A stretch of 64,000 nucleotides of DNA, taken from Bacilli bacterium (GTDB lineage: Bacteria > Bacillota_I > Bacilli_A > ML615J-28 > CAG-698). A program made the position numbers and the translations under genes. Shown here one piece after another: positions 1,795-46,842 of this stretch. How positions within the stretch are numbered: position 1 is the stretch's first letter; the number at the start of each line of letters is the position of its first letter. A model generated the notes under the pieces. It was not told the origin of the DNA and did not search any database. It was given only the letters and a program-made list of their open reading frames with translations. The DNA is taken from contig JAFSVH010000101.1 in assembly GCA_017450215.1 (NCBI GenBank), positions 1,534-65,533 of the forward strand, given 5' to 3'.

Positions 1795-3444
1795 CTATAA
1801 AAGAACTATATTATCAGCAAATGAATCAAATTGTGAGTCATGTGTGAAAACAATTATTGTTTTATCCTTTTTTAAAGTATGTATATATTCAATAATTTTT
1901 TTACTATTTTCATTATCAATTTCAGATGTTGGCTCATCTAAGATATAAACATTTGTTTCTTTAAGTAAAGTTCTTAATAAACAAATTCTTCTTTTTTCAC
2001 CTCCAGATAAATTAGAACTATTTAAATTAATAACAAAGTCCATTCCATTCTTCTCAATTAAACGAGTTAAATTTAATTCTCCTATAAGTATTTTCAATTT
2101 TTCTTCACTATAGTTATTATTCCCATATGTAACATTATCAATAAACGATCTATTAAACAATTGTATATCTTGAAATAAAACTCCTACAGAAGAAATATCA
2201 TATTCATAATTCTTTTCATCATTTATTAAAATTTCACCACTTTTTGGTGTTAATAATCCAAGCATTAATTTTATTAAGGTGCTTTTACCCTTACCACTCT
2301 CTGATTTAACAACAGTTATTTCATTACTATTGAATACTAAGTTTAAATTTTGATATATTTCTTTTTCACCATAATTGAATGATAAGTTTTTAATTTCAAT
2401 AATTGGAGATCTATCAATCTTTTTTATCCCATTCATTTTGACTTCATAATCACAAAGGTTTATCTCGAATAAACGGCTAAGTGCTTTATCCCCCTCAGCT
2501 AAAAGTTTAGCGTATCTACTAAAGCCTGATATAGGGGTATATAATTTTTGAACATATAAATAAGCAATAGTAAATGCACCAGCTGTTAAAATATTAATAT
2601 TTATCATATAAAATGTGACAAGTAAAACTAATACAATTCCAATCGTTTTAACAACACTAATTGTCGGAAAAAGTGCAGATAGGCTTTTATTAAGTTTAGT
2701 AGTTTGTTTGTACGAATCATTTAAATAGCTATTTGCCAAATACGATTCATTTTCTTCTTCTCTATTGATATGAACCATTTTTAAATTCTTTATTAATGAT
2801 AAAAAATAATTATTTGTATCGTCCGTAATTGATGAAATATAACCAGAGTATTTTTTAGTGGTATTTCCAATTTTAGTTGAAATGAAATAAACTGGAAACA
2901 CAAATATAATAGCTGTTAAAGCTACTTTCCAATTCCATACAAAGAAAATTATTATTATCCATATTACTTCTATAATATCTCTAATAAAACCATTAAATGG
3001 TGTTACAATAATTTGACTAGTGTATGTTATATCTTTAGTAATTCTAGTTATAAGATCGCCTTCTTTTAAAAATGAACTATCTGGATCATAATTATTAATT
3101 ATTTTTGCAAACATATCTTTTTGTACTGCTATTTTTATCAATAAACCAAATTGGGATACAAAATAACCAAAAGCTGTATTAAGGATTGAAACTATAATCA
3201 AAACTAAGCCAAAAATCAACAGTAGCAAAACTATTCTATTATCAAGTGCATTATATAATATTAAAGCCACTCCCGAAAGTTTATCAGGATTAGCAACCAT
3301 ATCTATAATATAACCTATCATTAAAGTTGGGATAGATGATAAAAAACCTGTTATTATCGATAACAAAATATACATTACAATTTTATATTTATTATTCTTA
3401 ATATATGGATATAAATTTTTAATACCTGTACAATTCAATTTCAT
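1795..3444 (-). CDS. ABC transporter permease/ATP-binding fusion (peptide-exporter type, no C39 peptidase domain)
   Basis: N-terminal 6-TM region. Walker A SGKGKST, signature LSGGEKRR, Walker B ILDEPTSEID. Overlaps the upstream gene by 4 nt (ATGA). Confidence 0.85.
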   Translation of the reverse strand: MKLNCTGIKNLYPYIKNNKYKIVMYILLSIITGFLSSIPTLMIGYIIDMVANPDKLSGVALILYNALDNRIVLLLLIFGLVLIIVSILNTAFGYFVSQFGLLIKIAVQKDMFAKIINNYDPDSSFLKEGDLITRITKDITYTSQIIVTPFNGFIRDIIEVIWIIIIFFVWNWKVALTAIIFVFPVYFISTKIGNTTKKYSGYISSITDDTNNYFLSLIKNLKMVHINREEENESYLANSYLNDSYKQTTKLNKSLSALFPTISVVKTIGIVLVLLVTFYMININILTAGAFTIAYLYVQKLYTPISGFSRYAKLLAEGDKALSRLFEINLCDYEVKMNGIKKIDRSPIIEIKNLSFNYGEKEIYQNLNLVFNSNEITVVKSESGKGKSTLIKLMLGLLTPKSGEILINDEKNYEYDISSVGVLFQDIQLFNRSFIDNVTYGNNNYSEEKLKILIGELNLTRLIEKNGMDFVINLNSSNLSGGEKRRICLLRTLLKETNVYILDEPTSEIDNENSKKIIEYIHTLKKDKTIIVFTHDSQFDSFADNIVLL

Positions 3445-5905: not shown

Positions 5906-6833
5906 ATTTATACACTATTCCCAAAACATTGTTATTATTGATTTCAGTCTTTTCATTAGAATTATCACCTTTAGTTATAATAGAATCTTTTCCTATTGAT
6001 ATTATTCTATGAACAACTAAAACTTTATTACTATTATAAAGTATTACATCTCCTTTCTTCAAATTTGTAATTTCTACTTTTTTAATCAAAATGTCATCAC
6101 CATCCTTTAAAAAAGGAGACATACTTGAGCCATAAATTTTTGTTATTATTTTCTTAGTCTTATACAATATCTTTTTAACTAATTCTACTGAGATATAAGG
6201 TAAAACATTAATATTATTAAAGACATATACCGCTTTTTTGTATGCTATATCACAGCAATTTAGTTTTTCATCTTCAGTTAAATAAAGTTTTTTTGTGAAA
6301 GCATAGATATACGCAGGACAAGCATCACATAAATTAACATAGTTGCAATTATGGCATTTTGAGTTAGGATTTTCAGTATATGCATCCAAAAAAACCCCAA
6401 TCTTTTCCCATGCTTCCGAAAATGATAATTCATTTAAATCAATTTTACAAAAATCTCCATAAAGACATGGTTTTAAGATTAAATTTGAATTAATATAAAA
6501 AGAATATCTTCCACCTCCACAATCAAAACATTTTTCACGTCTTTCATTCTTATAATCAATTTGCCAATTGTGTATTAAATTATCATCTTGTGACAACAGT
6601 ATATTTACAATTTTGCCTGAAGAACATTGAAAATCAACTATTGAATCATCTCCATTCAATGATGGCCACAAATTATAATCAAAACGAAATTCAATCTCCA
6701 TTTTTTTTGCCAATGAAGACACTTTTTCAAACATACTATAATTATAATTTGTTAAAACCATCTTTATACCAACATTAATTTCCTTTTCCTTCAACTTCTT
6801 TAAGTTATCCATAATAATATCGTATGGTTTCAA
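5895..6833 (-). CDS. SPASM-domain protein lacking a radical SAM CxxxCxxC triad, fused to a C-terminal SipW/ER-type (S26B) signal-peptidase-like domain
   Basis: Seven-Cys SPASM pattern CFDCGGG...PC...FC...C.NC....C..C. C-terminus has GSSMSPFL...GDVILYNSN...VHRIISIGKDSIITKGDNSN, matching the SM(E/S)P Ser box, the His box and the KGDNN box of SipW-type peptidases. No CxxxCxxC and no TM segment. Confidence 0.65.
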   Translation of the reverse strand: MKPYDIIMDNLKKLKEKEINVGIKMVLTNYNYSMFEKVSSLAKKMEIEFRFDYNLWPSLNGDDSIVDFQCSSGKIVNILLSQDDNLIHNWQIDYKNERREKCFDCGGGRYSFYINSNLILKPCLYGDFCKIDLNELSFSEAWEKIGVFLDAYTENPNSKCHNCNYVNLCDACPAYIYAFTKKLYLTEDEKLNCCDIAYKKAVYVFNNINVLPYISVELVKKILYKTKKIITKIYGSSMSPFLKDGDDILIKKVEITNLKKGDVILYNSNKVLVVHRIISIGKDSIITKGDNSNEKTEINNNNVLGIVYKYEL

Positions 6834-6907
6834 TAAAGGATTACATCCATAATAATCTTCATTTTTCTAAATGTATCATGTGTTTTTACCTCATTCCTTA
6901 TAACAAA

Positions 6908-7387
6908 TTACTTCTTAATTTCCAGTGTAATTGTTACTTTATCACTTGTTGAAAGTAATTCTTTTATTTTATTCTCACTTAAATTGATACGACCAAGTTT
7001 AGTAAATGACCAACTATTATTACCATAATACAAACATATTTGATTAGAATTATAAAGTACTATATCACCTGGACCTACATTCATTCTTTCATCATTACTA
7101 ACTAATGTAAATCCTAGTAAACCTGTTTGTTCAAAATTACCATATTCATGTAATTCAATAGTTAATTCATTATTAATATGATTCATTAGATCTTTTACTG
7201 ATGCATTATCATACCATATTACATCAATTACATCACTTCCAATTTTTAATATCATTTTAACCTCTTCTGCTTCTTCTTCATTATTTGTTATATCATTAGT
7301 TGGTTTCGTGTTTTCTGTATCTTCATTATTATAACTACATCCAACTAATAATAACAATAAAACAAATATTAATATTATTCTTTTCAT
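6908..7387 (-). CDS. lipoprotein, cyclophilin-like (PF04126-type) domain
   Basis: Signal peptide with lipobox LLVGC, then a D/E/N-rich linker. The domain pattern IGSDVIDVIWYDNASVKDL...GPGDIVLYNSNQICLYYG matches the cyclophilin-like family. An own promoter and RBS AGGAGA lie upstream. Confidence 0.55.
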   Translation of the reverse strand: MKRIILIFVLLLLLVGCSYNNEDTENTKPTNDITNNEEEAEEVKMILKIGSDVIDVIWYDNASVKDLMNHINNELTIELHEYGNFEQTGLLGFTLVSNDERMNVGPGDIVLYNSNQICLYYGNNSWSFTKLGRINLSENKIKELLSTSDKVTITLEIKK

Positions 7388-7443
7388 ATTGTATTTCTCC
7401 TATGTCTATTTTACCACAATATCTTTCTTTTTCCCATAGATAA

Positions 7444-7480
7444 CAAAAAAAGCCAGTCTTGTGGACTGACAGTTTTTATT
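7444..7480 (-). terminator. bidirectional hairpin terminator after the AKR operon
   Basis: CCAGTC-ttgtg-GACTG hairpin at 7453-7469, flanked by an A-run (7445-7451) and a T-run (7473-7480). Confidence 0.45.
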
Positions 7481-8321
7481 TTGCTTCATATGTAGGATGC
7501 CATTTAGCATATTCTTCAACACGATCATCATCTGCTTCATATCTACGCTTTCCTACATTTAATTTTGCCATTTTTTTCATATCATCATTATCTAACTTGA
7601 AATCAAATATATTAATATTATCTTTAATATGATCTACATTCTTAGAACCAGGAATTACAATAAATCCCATTTGATTATGCCATTTTAATACTACTTGAGC
7701 AGTTGATTTATTATGCTTTTTCGCTATACCCTTTACTATCTCACTATCAAGAAGTTCAGCAGTCATTCCTTTTCCACCTAGTGGATACCAGCTCATTATT
7801 CTAATGTTTTCTTTTTCTGTTATTTTTCTTAGATTATCTTGTGGGAAAAATGGATGACATTCAACTTGAATAACTTGAGGAATAATATCATATTCATCTA
7901 ATACTTCATTGATATGTTTTTCAAAATTAGAAATACCAATTGATTTAATTTTACCTTCTTTATAAGCTTTTACTAACTGATCATATCCATGACGCCAATT
8001 AGATGTTGCTTGATGAATAAATAATAAATCAATATAGTCTACTCCAAGTCTTTCTAGTGTTTCATCAACTGCGTTAGGATTTTCGTATTCAGAAGCCCAT
8101 AGTTTAGTAGACAAAAAGATATCTTCTCTTTTGATACCACTATCTTTCATAGCACGCCCAACTGCTCTTTCATTACAATATGCATTTGCAGTATCAATTA
8201 ACTTGTAACCTAATTTTAATGCATTTAATACACTATTATAAGCATCTTTTGGTTCAAGTAGGAATGTCCCAATTCCTACACTTGGCATTAATACATTGTT
8301 GTTTAATTTAAATTCTTTCAT
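7476..8321 (-). CDS. aldo/keto reductase (2,5-diketo-D-gluconate reductase-like)
   Basis: Motifs LMPSVGIGTF, IDTANAYCNE and IPGSKN typical of the AKR family. Confidence 0.9.
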   Translation of the reverse strand: MKEFKLNNNVLMPSVGIGTFLLEPKDAYNSVLNALKLGYKLIDTANAYCNERAVGRAMKDSGIKREDIFLSTKLWASEYENPNAVDETLERLGVDYIDLLFIHQATSNWRHGYDQLVKAYKEGKIKSIGISNFEKHINEVLDEYDIIPQVIQVECHPFFPQDNLRKITEKENIRIMSWYPLGGKGMTAELLDSEIVKGIAKKHNKSTAQVVLKWHNQMGFIVIPGSKNVDHIKDNINIFDFKLDNDDMKKMAKLNVGKRRYEADDDRVEEYAKWHPTYEAK

Positions 8322-10330: not shown

Positions 10331-10405
10331 TGGAGCAGGTAACGAGAATCGAACTCGCATCTTCGCCATGGCAAGGCGGTATATTAGCCGTTGTACTATA
10401 CCTGC
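10331..10405 (-). tRNA. tRNA-Gly (anticodon GCC)
   Basis: Hand fold of the 75-nt minus-strand sequence. Acceptor stem GCAGGTA/TACCTGC, T-arm GCGAG-TTCGATT-CTCGT, anticodon loop TTGCCAT, 3' TCCA. The D-stem is weak (3 bp). Confidence 0.75.
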
Positions 10406-23348: not shown

Positions 23349-23546
23349 TTTAAAGAATTTATTATAATAGTATCCAGAAGACCGATAATACTGATGTGAA
23401 CCACAGTTCACCACGGTGGGTCTCTCTCTTGGTATAATTAAAGGATTCTTATCTAAAATAAGCTTTCAACAGCATTATACCCTCAACACCCTAAATATCT
23501 ATTGTTCGGTTCGCATATTAAGTACAAACTCGAGAATTCCAGATAC
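23349..23546 (-). ncRNA. candidate ~240-nt structured small RNA or attenuator-type leader (class undetermined)
   Basis: Delimited by the consensus-like promoter at 23553-23581 and the terminator at 23305-23348. Contains hairpin GTGAAC-TGTG-GTTCAC. No ORF and no canonical T-box sequence found. Confidence 0.3.
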
Positions 23547-23552
23547 AATTAG

Positions 23553-25140: not shown

Positions 25141-26100
25141 ATGAATGATAGACTAAGAACAAACGAAACTTTACCCGATTTTGTTTCTACTCAGCATAAT
25201 TATCATACATTAGATTATTATTTTAAAAAGAAATACAATTCTAAAGTATTTAAAGTTGCCTTGAATGGTGACTTTTCTTGTCCGAACAGAGATGGCACTA
25301 TCTCTAAAGATGGTTGCATCTTTTGTAGTGACAAGGGAAGCGGAGAATTTGCTGGAGATAAACAAGATCCATTAAAAATTCAATTTAATAAAATTAAGGA
25401 CATAATTCATCTTAAATGGAAGGATGCTTTATACATTGCCTATTTCCAAGCAAATACTAACACTTATGCACCTTTATCAAAATTAAAGCGATTATTTGAA
25501 GAAGCAATTAATCTTGATAAAAACATTGTGGCAATTGACATTGCAACTAGACCAGATTGCTTATCAAGTGAATGCTTAGATTTTTTAGCTGAATTAAACA
25601 CTAGATGTAAAGTAATAGTCGAACTAGGACTACAAACCATCCACGAAGAAACAGCAATATTAATAAATCGTGGTTATAATTTAAATTGCTTTACTGAAGC
25701 AGTAAAGAAATTAAGGGAAAGAAAAATTGAAGTAATTGTCCATATTATTAATGGATTACCTCATGAAAGCTATGAAATGATGCTAGAGACTGCCTCATTC
25801 TTAGCTCATCAAGATATCCAAGGAATTAAGATTCATTCTTTATATATATTAGAAGGAACAAAAATTGCTTCAATGTATAAAAGCAATGAATTTAAGGTGC
25901 AAACTTTAGATGAATATGTGAAAACTGTGGCAAATCAACTTACTCTTTTAAGAGAAGATATTGTAATCCACAGAATAAATGGAGACCCACCAAAAGAGGC
26001 TCACATAGCCCCTGATTGGTGCTTAAAAAAGTTCGTTATTATGAACGAAATTGATAAATATATGAAGAAAAACGGACTCGTTCAGGGAGCACGTTTTTAG
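25141..26100 (+). CDS. radical SAM protein, TIGR01212 (YhcC-like) family
   Basis: FSCPNRDGTISKDGCIFC cysteine motif characteristic of this family. Confidence 0.8.
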   Translation: MNDRLRTNETLPDFVSTQHNYHTLDYYFKKKYNSKVFKVALNGDFSCPNRDGTISKDGCIFCSDKGSGEFAGDKQDPLKIQFNKIKDIIHLKWKDALYIAYFQANTNTYAPLSKLKRLFEEAINLDKNIVAIDIATRPDCLSSECLDFLAELNTRCKVIVELGLQTIHEETAILINRGYNLNCFTEAVKKLRERKIEVIVHIINGLPHESYEMMLETASFLAHQDIQGIKIHSLYILEGTKIASMYKSNEFKVQTLDEYVKTVANQLTLLREDIVIHRINGDPPKEAHIAPDWCLKKFVIMNEIDKYMKKNGLVQGARF

Positions 26101-26179
26101 TATTTGTCAACAAAAAAATGAGAAAAAATCAATGTAAATTCAATGAAAATTTTTCACATTTTTTCTTGTTTTCTTTTGC

Positions 26180-26208
26180 TTGACTATACTTTTTTTGTTT
26201 GTTATACT
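26180..26208 (+). promoter_or_regulatory. nrdD promoter TTGACT-17-TATACT
   Basis: TTGACT at 26180-26185, 17-nt spacer, TATACT at 26203-26208. Confidence 0.5.
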
Positions 26209-26253
26209 GACTATACATTGTGAATATAATAGAAAATGGAGGGGTATGTTATA

Positions 26254-28626
26254 ATGTTAAACGTGAAAAAAAGAAACGGTGAAATCGTTGCTTTTGACAT
26301 TACAAAAATTGAAAAAGCAATTGAACAAGCCTTTAAATCCGTAAAGCGTGAATACTCAAAAGACATGTTAGAATTACTTGCTTTAAGAGTAACCGCTAAC
26401 TTTACAGAAAAAATACAAAATGGTGTTATATCTGTAGAAGACATCCAAGATAGTGTTGAAATTGTGTTGATTCAATCACAATTTGTGGATGTTGCAAAAT
26501 CTTATATTATTTATAGAAAACAACACGAAAAAATTAGAAATACTAGAAAGACTATTCTAGATTATAAAGATACAATTAATAATTACCTAAAAATAAATGA
26601 CTGGAGAGTAAAAGAAAATTCTACAGTTACTTATTCAGTTGGTGGTTTAATCCTATCAAATTCAGGTGCATTAACTGCTAATTATTGGTTAAGTGAAATC
26701 TATGATTCTGAAATTGAAGAAGCACATAGAAATGCTGATATTCATATTCATGACTTATCAATGTTAACAGGTTATTGTGCAGGTTGGTCATTAAAGCAAT
26801 TAATCAAAGAAGGTTTAGGCGGTGTTCCAGGAAAGATTACTTCTGCTCCTGCTGCTCACCTTTCTACTTTATGTAATCAAATGACTAACTTCTTAGGTAT
26901 TATGCAAAATGAATGGGCTGGAGCTCAAGCTTTCTCATCATTTGATACATACCTTGCACCATTTGTAAAAGCTGACAACTTAACATACAAAGAAACAAAG
27001 CAATGCATCCAATCTTTCATTTATGGTGTTAACACTCCTTCTCGTTGGGGTACACAAGCACCATTCACTAACATCACACTTGACTGGGTTGTGCCAAATG
27101 ATATGGCTGAGTTAAATGCAATCGTTGGTGGAAAAGAAATGGATTTCAAATATAAAGATTGCGTTAAAGAAATGGCAATGGTAAACAAAGCTTTCATCGA
27201 AATCATGATTGAAGGTGATGCTAATGGCCGTGGCTTCCAATATCCAATCCCTACATATTCTATCACTAGAGATTTTGATTGGAGTGATACTGAAAACAAT
27301 CGTTTATTATTTGAAATGACTGCTAAATATGGAACTCCATACTTCTCTAATTATATAAATTCAGATATGGAACCAAGTGATGTAAGAAGCATGTGCTGTA
27401 GATTACGTCTTGACTTACGTGAATTACGTAAAAAATCAGGTGGTTTCTTTGGTAGTGGTGAATCAACTGGTTCAGTTGGTGTAGTTACACTTAATATGCC
27501 TCGTCTAGCATATTTATCAAGTGATATAGATGACTTCTATAAGAGATTAGATCACTTACTAGACATTTCAGCAAGATCATTAAAGATTAAACGTGATGTC
27601 ATCACTAAATTCTTAGATGCTGGTCTTTATCCTTATACTAAACGTTATTTAGGCACATTCAATAACCACTTCTCTACAATTGGACTAGTTGGTATGAATG
27701 AATGCTGCTTAAATGCAAAATGGTTAAAGAAAGACTTAACTCATAAAGATAGTCAAGAATTTACAAAAGATGTTCTAAACCACATGAGAGAACGCCTAAA
27801 AGATTACCAAGAAAAATATGGCGACCTTTATAACTTAGAAGCAACTCCAGCAGAATCAACAGCTTATAGACTTGCTAAACACGATAAGAAGAGATTCCCT
27901 GACATCATTACTGCTTCTGATGGTGATGCTACTCCATATTATACTAATAGTTCTCATTTACCTGTTGGTTATACAGATGACATCTTCAAAGCTTTAGATG
28001 TTCAAGATGAATTACAAACACTTTATACATCAGGAACTGTTTTCCATACATTCTTAGGTCAAAAGCTTCCTGATTGGAAGTCTTGTGCTAAATTAGTTAG
28101 AAAGATCGCTGAAAACTACAAGCTTCCTTATTATACAATGTCTCCAACATATTCAGTATGTTCTAAACATGGTTACATTGAAGGCGAAGTTTATATTTGC
28201 CCTGAATGCGGAAGAAAGACTGAAGTATATAGTAGAATAACTGGTTACTATCGTCCTGTTCAAAACTGGAATGATGGAAAGACTGAAGAATTCAAGAGTA
28301 GACGCACATATATAATTGAAACTTCAAAGATGAAGAGAAAAACACATGAAGATGAAGCTTTAGAATGTGCACAACCAGAAGCAAAGGAAATGTCAGATAA
28401 GTTGTTATTATTTACTACTCCTACATGTCCTAATTGCAAAATGGCTAAAGCAATGTTAAAGAATGCAAATATTGATTATGTATCAATAGATGCAGAAGAA
28501 AACAAAGATACAACTTTAAAATTCGGTATTAAAAAAGCACCAACATTATTAGTTCCAACTGAAAATGGTTATGAATATTTTGATAATGCTAGTGAAATTA
28601 AGAGATATATCGAAAGTAGAAAATAA
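26254..28626 (+). CDS. nrdD: anaerobic ribonucleoside-triphosphate reductase (class III) with C-terminal glutaredoxin/NrdH-like domain
   Basis: N-terminal ATP-cone, glycyl-radical motif SRITGYYRP, zinc ribbon CPECG. Extra ~75-aa C-terminal domain LLLFTTPTCPNCKMAK...APTLLV at about 28402-28623. Start at ATG 26254 (GGAGG upstream) rather than track start 26236. Confidence 0.9.
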   Translation: MLNVKKRNGEIVAFDITKIEKAIEQAFKSVKREYSKDMLELLALRVTANFTEKIQNGVISVEDIQDSVEIVLIQSQFVDVAKSYIIYRKQHEKIRNTRKTILDYKDTINNYLKINDWRVKENSTVTYSVGGLILSNSGALTANYWLSEIYDSEIEEAHRNADIHIHDLSMLTGYCAGWSLKQLIKEGLGGVPGKITSAPAAHLSTLCNQMTNFLGIMQNEWAGAQAFSSFDTYLAPFVKADNLTYKETKQCIQSFIYGVNTPSRWGTQAPFTNITLDWVVPNDMAELNAIVGGKEMDFKYKDCVKEMAMVNKAFIEIMIEGDANGRGFQYPIPTYSITRDFDWSDTENNRLLFEMTAKYGTPYFSNYINSDMEPSDVRSMCCRLRLDLRELRKKSGGFFGSGESTGSVGVVTLNMPRLAYLSSDIDDFYKRLDHLLDISARSLKIKRDVITKFLDAGLYPYTKRYLGTFNNHFSTIGLVGMNECCLNAKWLKKDLTHKDSQEFTKDVLNHMRERLKDYQEKYGDLYNLEATPAESTAYRLAKHDKKRFPDIITASDGDATPYYTNSSHLPVGYTDDIFKALDVQDELQTLYTSGTVFHTFLGQKLPDWKSCAKLVRKIAENYKLPYYTMSPTYSVCSKHGYIEGEVYICPECGRKTEVYSRITGYYRPVQNWNDGKTEEFKSRRTYIIETSKMKRKTHEDEALECAQPEAKEMSDKLLLFTTPTCPNCKMAKAMLKNANIDYVSIDAEENKDTTLKFGIKKAPTLLVPTENGYEYFDNASEIKRYIESRK

Positions 28627-28641
28627 AAAAGAGATTAAATT

Positions 28642-29556
28642 ATGTATGATATCCTAATTATAGGTGCAGGAGCAGCAGGTATGACTGCTGCTCTTAATGC
28701 ACTAAGAAACAATAAAACTGTATTAGTAATAGAAAAAGAAACAATCGGTGGACAAATTGCCTCTTCACCAAAAGTAGAAAACCTTCCATCAATCAAAGAA
28801 ATCTCTGGTGTAGATTTTTCAAGTCAACTATATGATCAAATAGAAGCATTAGGATGTGAATTTGATTTTGATGAAGTTAAATCAATTGAAAAAATCGATG
28901 AAGGCCACTTCAAAATAATATCTGAATACAATGAATATGAAGCTAAATCAGTTATCATTGCAAGTGGAGTTAAACATCGTCATCTAAATGCTATCAATCA
29001 TGATTTATTAGATGGTAGAGGCATATCTTATTGTGCAGTATGTGATGGTGCCTTTTACAAAGATGAAATCGTCAGCGTAATCGGAGATGCTAATACTGCT
29101 TTACAATATGCACTTCTTCTCGCTAACACATCTCTTAAGGTATATTTATGTTGTCTTTTCGATAAATTATTTGCTGATAAAATCTTAATTAATCGTGTAA
29201 TAAAAAATCCAAGAATTGAAATAACTTATAATATTTCTCTTCTTGAATATTTAAAAGATGACAATAATAAACTTAAAGGTTTAAGGTTTGAAGATACTAA
29301 AACTAAAAAAGAAATAATCTTTGATTGCAAAGGCTGTTTTGTTGCAATAGGACAAATCCCTGACAATGAAAAATTCTCTAATTTAGTAGACTTAGAAAAA
29401 GGTTTTATCAAAACTAATGAATTGTGTGAGACAAAAACAAAAGGCTTATATGCTATTGGTGATTGTAGAGTTAAAACGCTTAGACAGGTTTCTACTGCTG
29501 TAGCTGATGGCGCTATTGCTGCCTTTTATGCAATTAATTATGTTGATTCTTTATAA
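28642..29556 (+). CDS. thioredoxin-reductase-like flavoprotein (CAVCDG redox centre), NADPH-binding motifs degenerate
   Basis: FAD motif IIGAGAAG and redox-active CAVCDG. VIGGGDSA is replaced by VIGDANTA and the HRRD Arg pair by CCLFD. Confidence 0.8.
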   Translation: MYDILIIGAGAAGMTAALNALRNNKTVLVIEKETIGGQIASSPKVENLPSIKEISGVDFSSQLYDQIEALGCEFDFDEVKSIEKIDEGHFKIISEYNEYEAKSVIIASGVKHRHLNAINHDLLDGRGISYCAVCDGAFYKDEIVSVIGDANTALQYALLLANTSLKVYLCCLFDKLFADKILINRVIKNPRIEITYNISLLEYLKDDNNKLKGLRFEDTKTKKEIIFDCKGCFVAIGQIPDNEKFSNLVDLEKGFIKTNELCETKTKGLYAIGDCRVKTLRQVSTAVADGAIAAFYAINYVDSL

Positions 29557-29565
29557 AAAAGAATG

Positions 29566-29604
29566 TGACTTGTATCAAAAATAGATACAAGCCACTTTTT
29601 TTAT
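29566..29604 (+). terminator. bidirectional terminator between the converging nrdD-trxB-like and nrdG operons
   Basis: CTTGTATC-aaaaata-GATACAAG stem, flanked by a T-run on plus and an A-run upstream. Confidence 0.55.
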
Positions 29605-30623
29605 TTAAATAAATGTCCTTCTATAACTTTCACAATTTTTTCTAAATTAACTTTATCATTATCAGAGAATCTATAAAAAGATGGACTATCAATATCCAAA
29701 ACACCATAAATATCATTACCATTATAAATTGGAATAACAATTTCAGATTTAGATCTTGCATCACAAGCAATATGACCATCAAACATCAAGACATTACCAA
29801 CAACTAATGTCTTACCTAGTTCTACACTTCTAAAGCAAACACCACGACCACGTTTTAAAACTGTACATGCAGGTTCACCCATAAATGGTCCTAACAATAA
29901 TTCATCATTTTTATATAAATAAAAACCTAACCAATTAATATTATCTATATTATGATAAAGCAAACTTGCTGTGTTTGCTAAAACGGAAATATCAAAATTA
30001 ACATCATTATTCAAACTATCAACATTAGTTATTAATTCTTTATATTTATCTACTTTATAACCAAATACTTTTGCTAAATTAGAATTCTTATAATCACTAT
30101 CTAAGCTTACATCGCTATAGATATAAATATCATAATATTTAGTAAATACTTTTTCTATTTTCTCTTTAATAGCATCATTTACTTCATCTACTTCAATCTC
30201 ACATGTAAAGAATTCAGTTTTTAAATTTAAATATTCATCAAATTCAAATTTTAATACTTTATTTTCATTCTTCTTATCAATTTGAACTTCATCAATAAAT
30301 CTATTCTTTAAAACGAAACTTTCAATATTATCTTCTTTAATTAAATCATTAAAAACTAATTCACTTATCTCTTTTTCGTATTCTTTTCTAGAATAGAGAA
30401 CAGATTTAGTCTTTAATGTTGCAACGTATTTCACATTATTACTAATTATCTTTCTAACTCTAATTGTATGAATAGATTGGAAATTTAAATCATCAAATAT
30501 ATTGCTTAAAATAAAAACAACTTCTTTATTACGTTTCAAATAATATTGACTAATATTAATTGGATTATTTAATTTATCAGGTAATATATTAATTCTATAT
30601 TTTAATTCAGTTTCAACAGCCAT
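29601..30623 (-). CDS. CYTH-domain / free methionine-(R)-sulfoxide reductase (GAF, fRMsr) fusion protein
   Basis: N-terminal ETELKYR (CYTH ExExK) and FTCEIEVDE. C-terminal WLGFYL...GEPACTVLKRGRGVCFRS...FDGHIACDARSKSEIVIP...GVLDIDS matches fRMsr including its three Cys. RBS AAGAGGT. Starts 1 nt after the nrdG stop. Confidence 0.75.
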   Translation of the reverse strand: MAVETELKYRINILPDKLNNPINISQYYLKRNKEVVFILSNIFDDLNFQSIHTIRVRKIISNNVKYVATLKTKSVLYSRKEYEKEISELVFNDLIKEDNIESFVLKNRFIDEVQIDKKNENKVLKFEFDEYLNLKTEFFTCEIEVDEVNDAIKEKIEKVFTKYYDIYIYSDVSLDSDYKNSNLAKVFGYKVDKYKELITNVDSLNNDVNFDISVLANTASLLYHNIDNINWLGFYLYKNDELLLGPFMGEPACTVLKRGRGVCFRSVELGKTLVVGNVLMFDGHIACDARSKSEIVIPIYNGNDIYGVLDIDSPSFYRFSDNDKVNLEKIVKVIEGHLFK

Positions 30624-30624
30624 T

Positions 30625-31323
30625 TTAATAACCTCTTAAATATACATTATCTACATATTCACTTAATATGTCTTTATATTTATTAGCTTCTTCTAAACTA
30701 ATTTCATGAAACCCACCTTTTATGCAGGTACCATGATCAACAAATTTTTGTAAATAAAGTTTCTTTGCTCCTTTTACAAGCTTTCCCATTTTTTTGATAT
30801 TTTCTTCATCATGAAATTCTTTAATTAAAGTAGTTCTAAATTCATAATCAATCACATCGCTCTTTAAATAATCGATAGTTTCTTGAATCTTGTTAAAATC
30901 AAAAGATTCAACACCTATTGTCTCATTATATCTTTCTTTTGAATTCTTAATATCCATAGCAACATAATCAATTAATTTTTCTTCAACTAATTCTCTTAAC
31001 AATTTTAAATTAGAACCATTAGTATCAAATTTAATAAAATATCCGATTTCCTTTATCTGTTTTAATTTTTCCTTTAATCCTTCCATTAATGTTGGTTCAC
31101 CACCACTAATGACAACAGCATCTAGCATCTTCTTTCTTAATTTAAGATAATCTAAGATTTCGTCAAAATCAAAATAAGGATATCTTTTATAATCAATAAC
31201 TAAAGCAGAATTATGACAATATGGACATCGAAAATTACATCCTCCAGTAAATAAGGATGCGCATAAAAAATCATTTAAATCAACTAAAGATAATTTTTCA
31301 AATCCATAAAATTCTTTACTCAT
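30625..31323 (-). CDS. nrdG: anaerobic ribonucleotide reductase activating protein (radical SAM)
   Basis: TGGCNFRCPYCHNS cluster motif typical of NrdG/PflA-type activases. Confidence 0.85.
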   Translation of the reverse strand: MSKEFYGFEKLSLVDLNDFLCASLFTGGCNFRCPYCHNSALVIDYKRYPYFDFDEILDYLKLRKKMLDAVVISGGEPTLMEGLKEKLKQIKEIGYFIKFDTNGSNLKLLRELVEEKLIDYVAMDIKNSKERYNETIGVESFDFNKIQETIDYLKSDVIDYEFRTTLIKEFHDEENIKKMGKLVKGAKKLYLQKFVDHGTCIKGGFHEISLEEANKYKDILSEYVDNVYLRGY

Positions 31324-31382
31324 AAAAGCCTCTTTATTATTTTTATAAAACTGGCAATAATAACATTGCCAGTTTCATATTA

Positions 31383-32579
31383 TTATTTATTGATAAAATA
31401 ATTCTTAATTTCTTCTACTTTATCTACTTTTTCCCAACTAAATTCATCTTCACCGAAGTGACCATAATTTGTTGTTCTAGCATAGATTGGAGTTCTTAAT
31501 TTCAAATGCTTAATTAATCCACCTGGAGTAAGTGGGAAGATAGCTCTAACCATTTTAATTAATTCATTATCACTATATTTACTTGTACCAAATGAATCTA
31601 CTCTAACTGAAGTAGGTTCAGCAACGCCAATAGCATAACTAACTTGTACTTCAACACGTGAAGCAATGCCACTTGCAACTATATTTTTTGCAATATATCT
31701 CATCATATAACAAGCACTACGGTCAACCTTTGAAGGATCCTTTCCAGAGAAAGCACCACCACCATGATGAGCAATTCCACCATATGTATCAACAATAATC
31801 TTTCTTCCAGTCAAACCGCTATCACCTACTGGTCCACCAATACAAAATCTACCAGTAGGATTGATAAGATATGTAGTCTTTTCATCTATCAATTCTTTAG
31901 GAATTACATATTCAATTACATTTTTAATAATGTAATCTTTTAAAAATTCCATATCTACATCTTCTGTGTGTTGAGTTGATAATACAACATTATCTACTCT
32001 TTCCATTTTTCCATTTTTATATTCAATTGTAACTTGTGCTTTTCCATCAGGACGTAAGAATTTAGCACCATTCTTTCTAAGTTGAGCAAGTCTATGTGTT
32101 AAATCATGAGCAAATCTAATAGTTGCAGGCATTAATTCCTTTGTTTCTGTACATGCATAACCAAACATCATACCTTGGTCGCCTGCACCTTTATCATCCC
32201 CAACACCTAAATTAATATCTGGAGATTGACCAATCAATCTAACTTGAATAGGAATAGTATTACCATTAAATCCTAATTCATCATTATCATAGCCAACATC
32301 GCATATTACTTTTCTAGCTATTTTTTCTGGATCAACTTTTTCAAAATTATTACAAGTTATTTCACCAAAAATAACAACAGCATCAGCACAAGCTATTACT
32401 TCACAAGCAACATGAGCTTTTTCATCAACAGATAAATAAGCATCCAAAATTGAATCAGCTATTTTATCACATAATTTATCTGGATGTCCTTCAGTTACTG
32501 ACTCAGATGTAAATAATATTGAGTCATCTTTAATTAAATTTTTTAATTCTTTTGATTTTTCAAGTTTTTGTTCTTTCAT
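31383..32579 (-). CDS. metK: S-adenosylmethionine synthetase
   Basis: GHPDKLCDKIADSILD and GGGAFSGKDPSKVDRSA. Confidence 0.95.
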   Translation of the reverse strand: MKEQKLEKSKELKNLIKDDSILFTSESVTEGHPDKLCDKIADSILDAYLSVDEKAHVACEVIACADAVVIFGEITCNNFEKVDPEKIARKVICDVGYDNDELGFNGNTIPIQVRLIGQSPDINLGVGDDKGAGDQGMMFGYACTETKELMPATIRFAHDLTHRLAQLRKNGAKFLRPDGKAQVTIEYKNGKMERVDNVVLSTQHTEDVDMEFLKDYIIKNVIEYVIPKELIDEKTTYLINPTGRFCIGGPVGDSGLTGRKIIVDTYGGIAHHGGGAFSGKDPSKVDRSACYMMRYIAKNIVASGIASRVEVQVSYAIGVAEPTSVRVDSFGTSKYSDNELIKMVRAIFPLTPGGLIKHLKLRTPIYARTTNYGHFGEDEFSWEKVDKVEEIKNYFINK

Positions 32580-45207: not shown

Positions 45208-46842
45208 TTAATCATAGAAACAGCTTCCACCAATAAATTCTCTTAATAAAGAATTACATGGAACATATTTATCATCAATACTACCAATAAATGATAACAT
45301 TGTGATTAAATTCTTAACTCCAGTATAATAAGGACTAGACTTTTTAACTGTAGCAAGTGCAGGTAAAGCATATTTCTTCATTACCATTATTTCATAAGTT
45401 AATTCAGTATTGAATGTATAATCAGTTTCATCTTGATAAGGATAAATCCATTTGAATTCACCTCTTCTTACATTACTCCACAATGCAAGAGTATTTTCAG
45501 GTGAAGACCCACGATATAACTTATCTCTAACAATACGACGTAATAATCTAATATCAGTTGCTGAAATAGGACTATGATTATCAAAATTCAATACAGCCAA
45601 AGGACTAATGAATATTTTAAATTTATTTTCTCTTGGGATTGAGCTAGTTAATGCTTCGTTTAACCCATGAATACCTTCAATTAAAATAGGTTGTCCTTTT
45701 TCTAATTTTACTGGTTCTTTAAAGCTATAAGTACCTGTATTAAAATCAAATTGAGATAAACGTACTTCTTCACCATCAATTAATCTCTTAATATGATCCT
45801 TAAACATTTCTACATTAAGTGCATCTAAATGTTCAAAATCAGGGTCACCATATTCATCTAATGGATAATCACCTCTATTTTTATAATAATCATCAATAGA
45901 AATCATAAAAGGATTAATACCCTTAGTCATTAATTCTATTCTCAATCTATTACAGAATGTGGTTTTACCACTACTTGAAGGCCCAGCAATTGCGATTAAC
46001 TTGATTGTGTCTTTCTTACTTGCAATAAGTTCTCCAATTTCAGCAAGGCAATTATTATGCTTAGTTTCAGCCATATTAACAAAATTAATAACACCTTCCT
46101 TAGTTTCAATAAGCTCATTCATATCTACTAAGTTTCTAATACCAAGCATTCTTGTCCATCTATTTTGATTTATAATCATATTACGAAAAGCTTCACAATC
46201 TTCAAATTCAGGAATCAATCCTTTTTCCTCAAATCTAGGATATTGAACATAGAAACCAGGATTATAATTTCTAATTTCATAATTCTTAATGTAACCAGTA
46301 CTTGGTAACATCATAGAAAACATATAATTATAATATCCATCACATTCATATGCTTTAACTGTCTCATTACCAAATTTTTGAAGAAAAGCAACCTTTTCAA
46401 AATAATTTTGATTACGATAATGCTCGATTAATTCTTCTTTCATTATTCTCTTCTTTATAATAGGTAAATCAAGACTAATGATTTCTTTAACACGATTATT
46501 AATTTTAACTAAATCTTCTTCTGTTACTGTATAATGACGAACATGAAATTTAACTGTTCTTGAAACAAAATTAGAAACAATTATTTTCTTATTAGGGAAT
46601 AATTCATATAAAGCTTTTAATATAATATATCTCAATGTAGATTCATAAATCTTAACAGCTTCAATATTAGTTTCGTCAACAAATTCTATAATAGAATCAC
46701 TATATACATAAAAATCTAATTCTCTTATTTTACCATTAACTTTACAGGCTAAAGCTTTAAAGCCATTTTTTATAGCTAAATCTTTAACTCTAATAGGATA
46801 TTCATATTCATATTTTTGACCATTTATAGTTACTGTATACAT
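45208..46842 (-). CDS. uridine-kinase-family P-loop kinase with N-terminal ThrRS/TGS-like domain
   Basis: N-terminal TGS-like MYTVTINGQKYEYEYPIRVKDLA. C-terminal IAIAGPSSSGKTTF...ISIDDYYK udk/PRK family. Confidence 0.65.
   Translation of the reverse strand: MYTVTINGQKYEYEYPIRVKDLAIKNGFKALACKVNGKIRELDFYVYSDSIIEFVDETNIEAVKIYESTLRYIILKALYELFPNKKIIVSNFVSRTVKFHVRHYTVTEEDLVKINNRVKEIISLDLPIIKKRIMKEELIEHYRNQNYFEKVAFLQKFGNETVKAYECDGYYNYMFSMMLPSTGYIKNYEIRNYNPGFYVQYPRFEEKGLIPEFEDCEAFRNMIINQNRWTRMLGIRNLVDMNELIETKEGVINFVNMAETKHNNCLAEIGELIASKKDTIKLIAIAGPSSSGKTTFCNRLRIELMTKGINPFMISIDDYYKNRGDYPLDEYGDPDFEHLDALNVEMFKDHIKRLIDGEEVRLSQFDFNTGTYSFKEPVKLEKGQPILIEGIHGLNEALTSSIPRENKFKIFISPLAVLNFDNHSPISATDIRLLRRIVRDKLYRGSSPENTLALWSNVRRGEFKWIYPYQDETDYTFNTELTYEIMVMKKYALPALATVKKSSPYYTGVKNLITMLSFIGSIDDKYVPCNSLLREFIGGSCFYD

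Follow-up and report, generated by a model that had tools for sequence, protein, structure and literature searches.

In the 64,000-nt stretch of DNA analysed here (the window), from an uncultured ruminant-gut bacterium with a GC content of about 27%, the gene directly behind nrdG encodes two enzyme domains in a single open reading frame: a predicted CYTH, or triphosphate-tunnel-metalloenzyme (TTM), domain followed by a predicted free methionine-R-sulfoxide reductase (fRMsr) (Table 1). The best explanation, to which we give a probability of about 60%, is a recent merger of two standard enzymes that act independently of each other and are co-expressed with nrdG. The merger itself is genuine and, it appears, unique, and the direction of the event appears to have been fusion rather than fission. 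No new function is shown; both halves look like ordinary enzymes.

Table 1. Features of the nrdG region; positions are counted from the first nucleotide of the window.
Feature	Position	Strand	Remarks
Convergent operon of nrdD and a TrxR-like flavoprotein	26236..29556	+	
Bidirectional intrinsic terminator	29565..29595	both	common to the nrdG-fusion (-) and nrdD/trxR-like (+) units
CYTH-fRMsr fusion ORF, 340 aa	29601-30623	-	directly after nrdG
Predicted fRMsr domain (GAF fold)	29604..30053	-	fusion aa 191-340
Fusion junction (KVFGYK/VDKYKEL)	30036..30068	-	aa 186-196; DNA alignment with L022
Predicted CYTH/TTM domain	30054..30623	-	fusion aa 1-190
nrdG, NrdG2-type radical-SAM activase, 232 aa	30625..31323	-	TIGR02495 and Pfam Radical_SAM
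Hairpin followed by UUUUA, between metK and nrdG	31348..31375	-	terminator or attenuator of metK read-through
metK (S-adenosylmethionine synthetase)	31383..32579	-	directly upstream of nrdG; TIGR01034, 542 bits

The two genes are still separate in a sister lineage (contigs L022, L023 and L030), whose NrdG is 73% identical to that of the window and in which gltX, metK, nrdG, CYTH, fRMsr and the convergent trxR-like and nrdD genes lie in the identical order. There, in contrast with the single fusion ORF of the window, CYTH (182 aa) and fRMsr (148 aa) are encoded by two ORFs, each in its own frame, with an overlap of 8 nt: in L022 the CYTH gene (6699-7247) ends in YFGVKND and a stop codon, and the fRMsr gene (7240-7686) starts MINYKSVNKELDSL. 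The fusion junction corresponds to this stop/start overlap. Since the separate genes occupy the same synteny, a merger specific to one lineage is the most likely origin of the window protein. At least five independent contigs, those long enough to hold it (L001, L002, L014, L015 and L016), carry the merged gene intact; they derive from three data sets and represent two strain variants. Among 1.84 billion representative proteins, full-length matches came from its own cluster only, and the fusion was seen in a single species-level lineage. The variants differ by 3 substitutions, of which 1 is non-synonymous; this variation is too low for measuring selection. On L020, the contig of an intermediate lineage (NrdG 86% identical), a CYTH-like ORF begins 1 nt after nrdG and runs for 72 nt to the contig end. 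A search of the literature found nothing of relevance on CYTH together with Msr, or on fRMsr together with anaerobic RNR.

The activase that precedes the fusion is of the NrdG type, as the original prediction had it. It scores 191 bits against the equivalog model TIGR02495 (cutoff 131) and matches Pfam Radical_SAM at 7e-22; the radical-SAM CX3CX2C motif is CNFRCPYC (aa 29-36, nt 31216-31239). Its similarity to viperins in PADLOC is only of the generic radical-SAM kind, and the fusion ORF has no defence-system match there. The exact protein is present on 16 contigs, and two homologs labelled ‘Bacilli bacterium’ (P0200 and P0273) are 55–57% identical to it. A contig search with NrdG among GTDB species representatives found no close relative, the best being 31–32% identical. 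The nrdD gene lies about 2 kb from nrdG in convergent orientation, an arrangement also found in L022, L024 and L026-L028.

A gene starting 1 nt after nrdG and encoding two domains had likewise been predicted, and the ORF agrees with this in both respects. The gap between the TAA stop of nrdG and the ATG of the fusion is 1 nt, and the Shine-Dalgarno sequence of the fusion (AGAGG) is located within the 3′ end of nrdG. A sequence scan found no terminator between the two genes; the strong one is 3′ of the fusion, with a 12-bp stem, a T-run on both strands and a predicted energy of -19.4 kcal/mol (z -7.2). From this anatomy the two genes appear to be co-transcribed and translationally coupled, and the co-transcription that had been claimed for them stands at the level of gene layout.

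How far metK belongs to the same unit depends on the hairpin between it and nrdG (-21.5 kcal/mol, z -5.7), which is kept in L022 and L020 with compensatory changes. The hairpin probably allows read-through from metK, but it may be a real terminator that uncouples metK from the operon. The adjacency of metK and nrdG is common to the window, L020, L022 and L030. An Rfam scan found no riboswitch, for SAM or any other ligand, near metK or nrdG. A search for NrdR boxes, aimed at co-regulation with nrdD, located none close to the nrd genes; its single weak match, elsewhere, is below chance. The promoter scan gave 32 candidates where 33.4 were expected by chance and is therefore uninformative on internal promoters. 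An alternative genetic code, suggested by the small number of TGA stops, was rejected, as two ATGA overlaps use TGA to end a gene and table 11 leaves every ORF intact. The separate-gene state in the sister lineage, the position of metK directly upstream and the converging NrdD-Grx/TrxR-like operon had no place in the original prediction.

The N-terminal half had been called CYTH from its ETELKYR start alone, with the claim staked on a match to CYTH profiles. As a single sequence it has no direct Pfam match, even at E≤10, formally the outcome that had been named as refuting the call, and the NCBIfam scan is also empty, so that the assignment relies on transitive homology and predicted structure. 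Both of these give CYTH. A profile built from 8 homologs finds the CYTH triphosphatase NE1496 (2fbl/3typ) at an E value of 5e-7, with no other PDB matches. Three of the eight profile sequences, all of them stand-alone homologs of 187–189 aa, match Pfam CYTH (PF01928; best E 7.6e-7), and for the homolog P0007 the PF01928 annotation was already precomputed. The AF2 model of residues 1-190 has a pLDDT of 91.7 and a pTM of 0.86; it has the eight-stranded β-barrel tunnel expected of a TTM. In Foldseek its best 17 PDB matches are all TTM/CYTH structures, among them AtTTM3, NE1496, YgiF, PH1819 and BH2851, at TM values of only 0.5–0.65. Residues E4, E6, K8, R55, R57, K71, K73, R79, E81, E83, K106, R108, E127, D129, E130, E142 and E144 are invariant in the family alignments, as is Y28, and the ExExK signature lies at aa 4-8. 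The identification of this half as a CYTH/TTM domain is thus supported by homologs and model.

The motifs of this domain are those of a phosphohydrolase rather than of a cyclase or a thiamine triphosphatase. Class IV cyclases are marked by HFxxxxExExK, a small residue in place of the first arginine of xRxR, and ExA instead of ExE; phosphohydrolase TTMs keep both arginines and ExE, and the thiamine triphosphatase subgroup has a W/YxRxR motif (PMC8233210). In the window protein only MAV stands before E4, with no HF, while R55 and R57 are both kept, as is E142-I-E144; a class IV (CyaB-type) adenylate cyclase was rejected on these grounds, and the signalling input that had been suggested for the CYTH fusion is, in its cyclase form, disfavoured with it. 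A thiamine triphosphatase was rejected since the aromatic position is occupied by Thr53 (T-I-R-V-R).

The nearest characterised relative is NE1496 (NeuTTM) of Nitrosomonas europaea, which is specific for inorganic triphosphate (PPPi). The two share ExExK, RxR, TLK, SR-x-E-x-E, K-x-R, F-E-x-D, ExE and the C-terminal YKN-x-x-L, in addition to the tunnel fold predicted for the window domain. The catalytic dyad of NE1496 is Tyr28/Lys52 (PMC3440374), which aligns with the invariant Y28 and K71. In contrast, overall identity is only about 20–23%, and the window domain exceeds NE1496 by some 35 aa, having an extra helix inserted at aa 33-42 and an extended β-hairpin. The specificity of NE1496 and the conserved dyad make PPPi the best guess for the substrate.

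The C-terminal half is, by sequence and predicted structure, a canonical fRMsr, and the original call of a complete enzyme with three cysteines holds. Residues ~190-338 match the S. aureus enzyme (3ksf) at 1.4e-42, E. coli YebR (1vhm) at 4e-35, the N. meningitidis enzyme (3mmh) at 1.3e-26 and 1f5m at 3e-25; the Pfam GAF score is 24–27 bits. Over its 150 aa the domain shares 45–52% identity with its S. aureus and E. coli counterparts, and the predicted model superposes on 3ksf with a target-normalised TM of 0.91–0.93 and an rmsd of 1.1–1.2 Å, in keeping with the GAF fold of fRMsr/MsrC/YebR. In fRMsrs the catalytic cysteine lies in H[I/V]xCD, with two resolving cysteines 24 and 34 residues upstream (10.1101/2021.02.26.433065). 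Here Cys287 lies within HIACD (aa 284-288), and Cys253 and Cys263 are present at the 34/24 spacing of yeast Cys91/101/125. The substrate-binding residues W231, Y235, E294 and D310/D312 are also present and align with those of the S. aureus and E. coli enzymes. Unlike the characterised fRMsrs, which are single-domain proteins, this one is joined to the C-terminus of the CYTH domain with essentially no linker. In the full-length AF2 model the pLDDT dips to 75–81 at the junction, and the pTM falls to 0.59, compared with 0.86 for the N-domain alone, so that no fixed inter-domain interface is predicted.

In the mechanism that we favour, two adjacent, formerly overlapping genes merged in one lineage at the end of the nrdG transcription unit, and the fusion would be expressed with nrdG through translational coupling. 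Both modules are most likely independent enzymes, with both activities inferred. The TTM domain would hydrolyse a triphosphate, presumably PPPi. The fRMsr domain would reduce free L-Met-R-sulfoxide to methionine, forming a sulfenate on Cys287 that would be resolved by Cys263/Cys253, and would be recycled by a thioredoxin-type reductant.

The main competitor is a neutral merger in which the two halves stay functionally uncoupled: a short insertion or deletion within the 8-nt overlap would have joined co-oriented genes whose products both still work, and the site behind nrdG would be a mere insertion into a transcribed, terminator-capped slot of a compact AT-rich genome, unrelated to NrdG, MetK or thioredoxin. 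We regard this as a serious possibility, if the less probable one. Genes that are separate but overlap, as in L022 and L030, make the obvious starting point, the fusion occurs in one species-level lineage only, and no confident domain interface is predicted. Promiscuous fusion is also a habit of fRMsr, which in other organisms is found joined to GNAT, MsrA, pyroglutamyl peptidase (peptidase C15), NUDIX and DUF4286 domains. Relatives whose NrdG is 58–62% identical have neither CYTH nor fRMsr beside nrdG. Stand-alone CYTH proteins of 187 aa, 37–46% identical over the whole N-domain, follow htpG on related metagenomic Bacilli-like contigs (P0006, P0007, P0009-P0011; L003, L005, L031, L033). In these all tunnel residues are invariant, and the sequence ends in YKNSNLxKYFGK exactly at the position of the fusion junction; they differ in being single-domain and translationally coupled to htpG, not nrdG, with no fRMsr nearby. 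A link to nrdG and metK in a narrow clade, for a CYTH subfamily otherwise found by htpG, argues for opportunistic placement and not for a dedicated NrdG-related function. The identities between the window and L022 (CYTH 46% and fRMsr 58%, against 90% for NrdD and 85% for the TrxR-like protein) suggest weaker constraint on the CYTH-fRMsr pair. On the other side, no fewer than three diverged lineages (the window, L022/L030 and, up to the end of its contig, L020) have retained the tightly coupled order nrdG-CYTH-fRMsr, and the linkage has therefore persisted; fusions of operon neighbours are, moreover, statistically enriched for functional partners.

A different reading, which we consider unlikely, is that the fRMsr was placed by the disulfide-reductase machinery next door, with CYTH as a passenger; the TrxR-like protein, acting with either an unlinked thioredoxin or NrdD's own Grx-like domain, would then recycle both NrdD and the fRMsr. 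NrdD has an ATP-cone, an MCCR finger loop and a C-terminal glutaredoxin-like domain with CPNC. The double-cysteine MCCR loop goes with reduction that depends on thioredoxin and not on formate (PMC9669993), and fRMsr turnover requires thioredoxin (10.1101/2021.02.26.433065). The TrxR-like flavoprotein encoded beside nrdD has CAVC, and the two units share a terminator. They are, however, convergent and not co-transcribed, and the nrdG/trxR-like/nrdD module occurs without fRMsr in relatives. In addition, the NADPH motifs of the TrxR-like protein are lost.

The original prediction had linked the fusion to NrdG through methionine, with the Msr recycling or protecting the methionine pool because NrdG turns SAM to methionine. 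This coupling is stoichiometrically weak, since the activase spends one SAM per glycyl radical installed and the methionine released is not oxidised. A further reading is a true partnership in the SAM cycle, in which the TTM domain would clear PPPi, or some other triphosphate acting as an inhibitor of MetK or NrdG/NrdD, and the fRMsr would feed methionine to MetK; on this view metK-nrdG-(TTM-fRMsr) would form an operon devoted to ‘SAM supply and repair’, used to re-arm the glycyl-radical RNR once it has been exposed to oxygen. We think this improbable. A thiol-reductant neighbourhood or operon hitch-hiking explains the placement equally well as coupling through methionine and SAM.

Least probable is a sensor-effector protein, in which the fRMsr-type GAF domain would bind methionine sulfoxide or another small ligand and regulate CYTH, or CYTH would produce a nucleotide signal, whether cyclic or linear. 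In its favour, GAF domains are well known as ligand sensors in fusions with cyclases and phosphodiesterases (such proteins appear lower in the Foldseek list), and CYTH includes class IV adenylate cyclases. Against it, the fRMsr domain keeps all the cysteines and substrate-binding residues of an active enzyme and is 58% identical to the free-standing fRMsr of the sister lineage, the CYTH domain lacks every cyclase determinant (PMC8233210), and the fusion is a recent product of two independent enzymes.

Returning to the merger of independent enzymes, its most economical physiological reading, which is speculation, is that the cluster serves ‘methionine/SAM and thiol-redox housekeeping’ during the recovery of an anaerobe from oxygen. 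The fRMsr would restore methionine for MetK, and NrdG would spend SAM in re-arming NrdD. The TTM domain would remove the triphosphate that is left when MetK transfers the adenosyl group of ATP, and the fRMsr and NrdD would both use the disulfide reductases encoded next door. As MetK normally splits its own PPPi, however, there is no obvious need for a separate PPPase.

To our knowledge, no physiological substrate or role has yet been established for the bacterial CYTH/TTM triphosphatases, and it is likewise unclear why strict anaerobes keep an fRMsr. As the linkage does not extend beyond a single narrow, uncultured lineage and each half looks like a standard enzyme, the fusion is likely to be a curiosity of genome compaction and not new biology. 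For biochemistry the convergent operon may hold more interest, with its MCCR-type NrdD that carries a Grx-like domain and its TrxR-like protein devoid of NADPH motifs. The persistence of the fusion beside metK and nrdG offers a concrete and cheap hypothesis, namely that hydrolysis of PPPi or NTPs is linked to methionine/SAM supply or to thiol-dependent RNR; if the partnership in the SAM cycle were true, it would provide the first defined pathway context for the bacterial CYTH triphosphatases.

The radical-SAM protein encoded downstream of metK scores 191 bits on the curated NrdG2 equivalog model TIGR02495 (cutoff 131) and carries the cluster motif CNFRCPYC, as expected of the activase named in the original prediction. 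The predicted two-domain gene does follow it on the minus strand: a single nucleotide separates the nrdG stop codon (TAA) from the ATG of the next gene, whose ribosome-binding site (AGAGG) lies within the last codons of nrdG. Both predicted motif sets are found in place; the observation is real, and both domain calls, a CYTH domain (triphosphate tunnel metalloenzyme, TTM; residues 1-190) followed by a free methionine-R-sulfoxide reductase (fRMsr; residues 191-340), are correct.

Features of the nrdG locus and of related loci on other metagenomic contigs
Feature	Contig	Position	Strand	Basis or remark
metK	window	31383-32579	-	ORF
metK-nrdG hairpin, then UUUUA	window	31348-31375	-	-21.5 kcal/mol, z -5.7
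metK-nrdG hairpin	L022	~5956-5980
metK-nrdG hairpin	L020	~3218-3247
nrdG, radical-SAM activase, 232 aa	window	30625-31323	-	TIGR02495
CYTH-fRMsr fusion, 340 aa	window	29601-30623	-	ORF
Separate CYTH and fRMsr genes	L022	6699-7686
Bidirectional hairpin with T-runs	window	29565-29595		-19.4 kcal/mol, z -7.2
Convergent nrdD and TrxR-like unit	window	26236-29556	+	motifs, equivalog score
NrdD finger loop MCCR	window	27391-27402
NrdD CPNC	window	28426-28437
htpG (Hsp90) directly followed by CYTH	L003	4079-6564		stop/start overlapping
htpG directly followed by CYTH	L005	1588-4073		stop/start overlapping
htpG directly followed by CYTH	L031	1037-3504		stop/start overlapping
htpG directly followed by CYTH	L033	1-2041		stop/start overlapping

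The exact NrdG sequence of the window was found on 16 contigs. The 340-residue reading frame is intact in five contigs long enough for the whole gene (L001, L002, L014, L015 and L016); they stem from three data sets and include two strain variants, which rules out an assembly error. The first ~110 nt of L002 (1-~115) are unlike the 5' end of the window's nrdG while the remainder is nearly identical, and this contig end is probably chimeric. An exhaustive HMMER search covering 1.84 billion representative proteins gave the protein's own cluster as the sole full-length match, the other top matches covering the fRMsr half alone. The longer fRMsr-containing proteins listed carry GNAT, pyroglutamyl peptidase, NUDIX, DUF4286 or a second GAF domain, and a separate homolog search added MsrA; CYTH was absent among them. 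Within the reach of these searches, the CYTH-fRMsr architecture is previously unreported.

The C-terminal half is an ordinary fRMsr. Residues ~190-340 strongly match characterised enzymes from S. aureus (3ksf, E 1.4e-42), E. coli (YebR, 1vhm, E 4e-35), N. meningitidis (3mmh, E 1e-26) and yeast (1f5m, E 3e-25). The corresponding part of the full-length AlphaFold model (pLDDT 86.7) fits the 3ksf structure at a TM of 0.91-0.93 and an rmsd of 1.1-1.2 Å. Cys287, within HIACD, is preceded by Cys263 (-24) and Cys253 (-34), a spacing identical to that of Cys125, Cys101 and Cys91 in yeast. Following a published motif description (10.1101/2021.02.26.433065), the substrate-binding positions are filled by Trp231, Tyr235, Glu294 and Asp310/Asp312. 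The catalytic set thus appears complete, with the three cysteines that had been predicted.

The CYTH call holds in a different way. No Pfam or NCBIfam model matched residues 1-190, even at E ≤ 10; taken literally, this is the outcome that the original prediction had named as its refutation. Three independent supports stand in place of a direct profile match: the homologs, the family profile and the predicted structure. Stand-alone homologs of 187-189 residues share 37-46% identity with this half. Of the eight aligned domain sequences, three, all stand-alone, match Pfam CYTH (best E 7.6e-7), and the eight-sequence profile has a sole match in the PDB, the CYTH inorganic triphosphatase NE1496 of Nitrosomonas europaea (E 5e-7). 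For the AlphaFold model of the domain alone (pLDDT 91.7, pTM 0.86), all 17 top-ranking PDB matches are triphosphate-tunnel/CYTH structures, AtTTM3, NE1496, YgiF, PH1819 and BH2851 among them, at moderate TM values of 0.5-0.65. Invariant in the family are E4-x-E6-x-K8, Y28, R55-x-R57, K71, K73, R79, E81, E83, K106, R108, E127, D129, E130 and E142-x-E144, the classical arrangement of charged side chains in the tunnel.

Judged by the published subgroup determinants (Vogt et al., PMC8233210), a class IV cyclase can be rejected, as there is no room for HF before ExExK, both arginines of xRxR are kept and ExE is not ExA; so can a thiamine triphosphatase, the aromatic position being Thr53. With neither set of determinants, the N-terminal half reads by its motifs as a phosphohydrolase of the TTM type. 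The proposed catalytic dyad of NE1496, Tyr28/Lys52 (PMC3440374), aligns with Y28/K71. The substrate is not deducible from sequence; by analogy with NE1496, the nearest characterised relative, the best guess would be inorganic triphosphate.

The origin of the fused gene can be read from relatives located through NrdG homologs. In a sister lineage (L022, L023 and, independently, L030; NrdG 73% identical) the gene order is that of the window: gltX, DEAD helicase, metK, nrdG, CYTH (182 aa), fRMsr (148 aa) and the convergent trxR-like and nrdD genes. There, CYTH and fRMsr are separate reading frames in different frames with an 8-nt overlap (...YFGVKND* / MINYKSVNKELDSL...), onto which the window junction (...KVFGYK-VDKYKELITNVDSL...) maps exactly. 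Stand-alone CYTH proteins terminate at the same point and the predicted-structure confidence drops there, so that the fusion is most simply read as two overlapping neighbours joined through a small indel. On the intermediate contig L020 (NrdG 86% identical) a CYTH-like frame begins 1 nt past nrdG, where the contig stops. On this reading the merger is recent, lineage-restricted and made from two standard enzymes.

In more distant contigs (L024, L026-L029; NrdG 58-62% identical) nrdG adjoins the convergent trxR-like/nrdD genes, and neither CYTH nor fRMsr was found in its flanks. Elsewhere, genes of this CYTH subfamily show translational coupling to htpG, and the nearest placeable stand-alone fRMsr lies in an unrelated context. 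The absence beside distant nrdG and the htpG linkage elsewhere limit the association to a narrow uncultured clade; the source data sets TONG22 and XIEF21 are presumably ruminant digestive-tract metagenomes. The CYTH and fRMsr halves share 46% and 58% identity with their L022 counterparts, as against 90% for NrdD, 85% for the TrxR-like protein, 78% for MetK and 73% for NrdG. Catalytic residues are kept despite this greater divergence; either the pair evolves at a far higher rate than the genes around it, or it has been replaced.

No terminator-like structure was found between nrdG and the fusion, and co-transcription is a sound inference from gene anatomy. The bidirectional hairpin closes both convergent units. 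The hairpin between metK and nrdG is shared by three lineages, those of the window, L022 and L020, with compensatory base changes between them, and may act as a terminator or attenuator of metK transcription, setting the metK : nrdG ratio. Since the gap from this hairpin to the ribosome-binding site of nrdG is only ~15 nt, that gene probably owes its expression to read-through or to a promoter within metK; promoter-like matches did not exceed chance level. Rfam gave only a 6S RNA (23367-23548, minus strand; 48.5 bits, just over the gathering score) and a tRNA (10334-10405, minus strand) in the window, with no SAM riboswitch upstream of metK.

The evidence best supports a bifunctional protein of two independent catalytic modules, made together with NrdG: the first would hydrolyse triphosphate in a metal-dependent manner, and the second would reduce free Met-R-SO and be recycled through thioredoxin. 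There is no evidence for a new activity or mechanism. As to why the genes are together, a methionine/SAM theme, in which fRMsr feeds methionine to MetK, the TTM clears triphosphate and NrdG spends SAM, is more coherent than the scheme originally proposed. MetK displaces triphosphate from ATP, which a TTM might remove; but MetK itself cleaves this triphosphate, and the hairpin may uncouple metK from the genes downstream.

An equally good alternative places fRMsr, which also needs a thioredoxin-type reductant, beside disulfide-reducing machinery. The finger loop of the convergent NrdD bears the double cysteine MCCR, a feature associated with reduction through thioredoxin instead of formate (PMC9669993), and its C-terminus is fused to a glutaredoxin-like domain that has CPNC. 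The TrxR-like flavoprotein encoded next keeps CAVC; aligned to TrxR 7aaw, it has GDANTA for GGGDSA and CCLFDKL for HRRDxxR, the NADPH-binding motifs thus being lost, and it scores 279 bits on the TrxR equivalog model, under the cutoff of 343. The unit, kept in L022, L024 and L026-L028, resembles a reducing system for class III RNR that is self-contained and possibly independent of pyridine nucleotides. The window has ~22-30% GC and a GC skew that is strongly negative along its whole length; its genes lie almost all on the minus strand, the mnmL/ytqA-nrdD-trxR-like block (25141-29556) being among the few plus-strand units. TGA stops are rare (2 of 51 ORFs, both ATGA overlaps). A 544-residue protein (45208-46842, minus strand) has a phosphoribulokinase/uridine-kinase domain in residues 282-478 only, its N-terminal ~280 residues lacking a Pfam match at 1e-4.

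A neutral merger with operon hitch-hiking in a compact genome also fits: the association is confined to a narrow clade, the CYTH subfamily sits beside htpG elsewhere, fRMsr is fused to many unrelated domains, and no interface between the two domains is predicted with confidence (pTM 0.59 for the whole protein vs 0.86 for the CYTH domain alone). The original proposal, that the reductase recycles methionine yielded from SAM by NrdG, is weak, since each glycyl radical costs the activase one SAM and the methionine is released unoxidised. A sensor or cyclase role is unlikely, as fRMsr keeps its active site intact and the cyclase determinants are absent.

The value of the fusion is as a testable hint to the role of bacterial CYTH triphosphatases; it also points to the adjacent thioredoxin-type NrdD-Grx/TrxR-like system.
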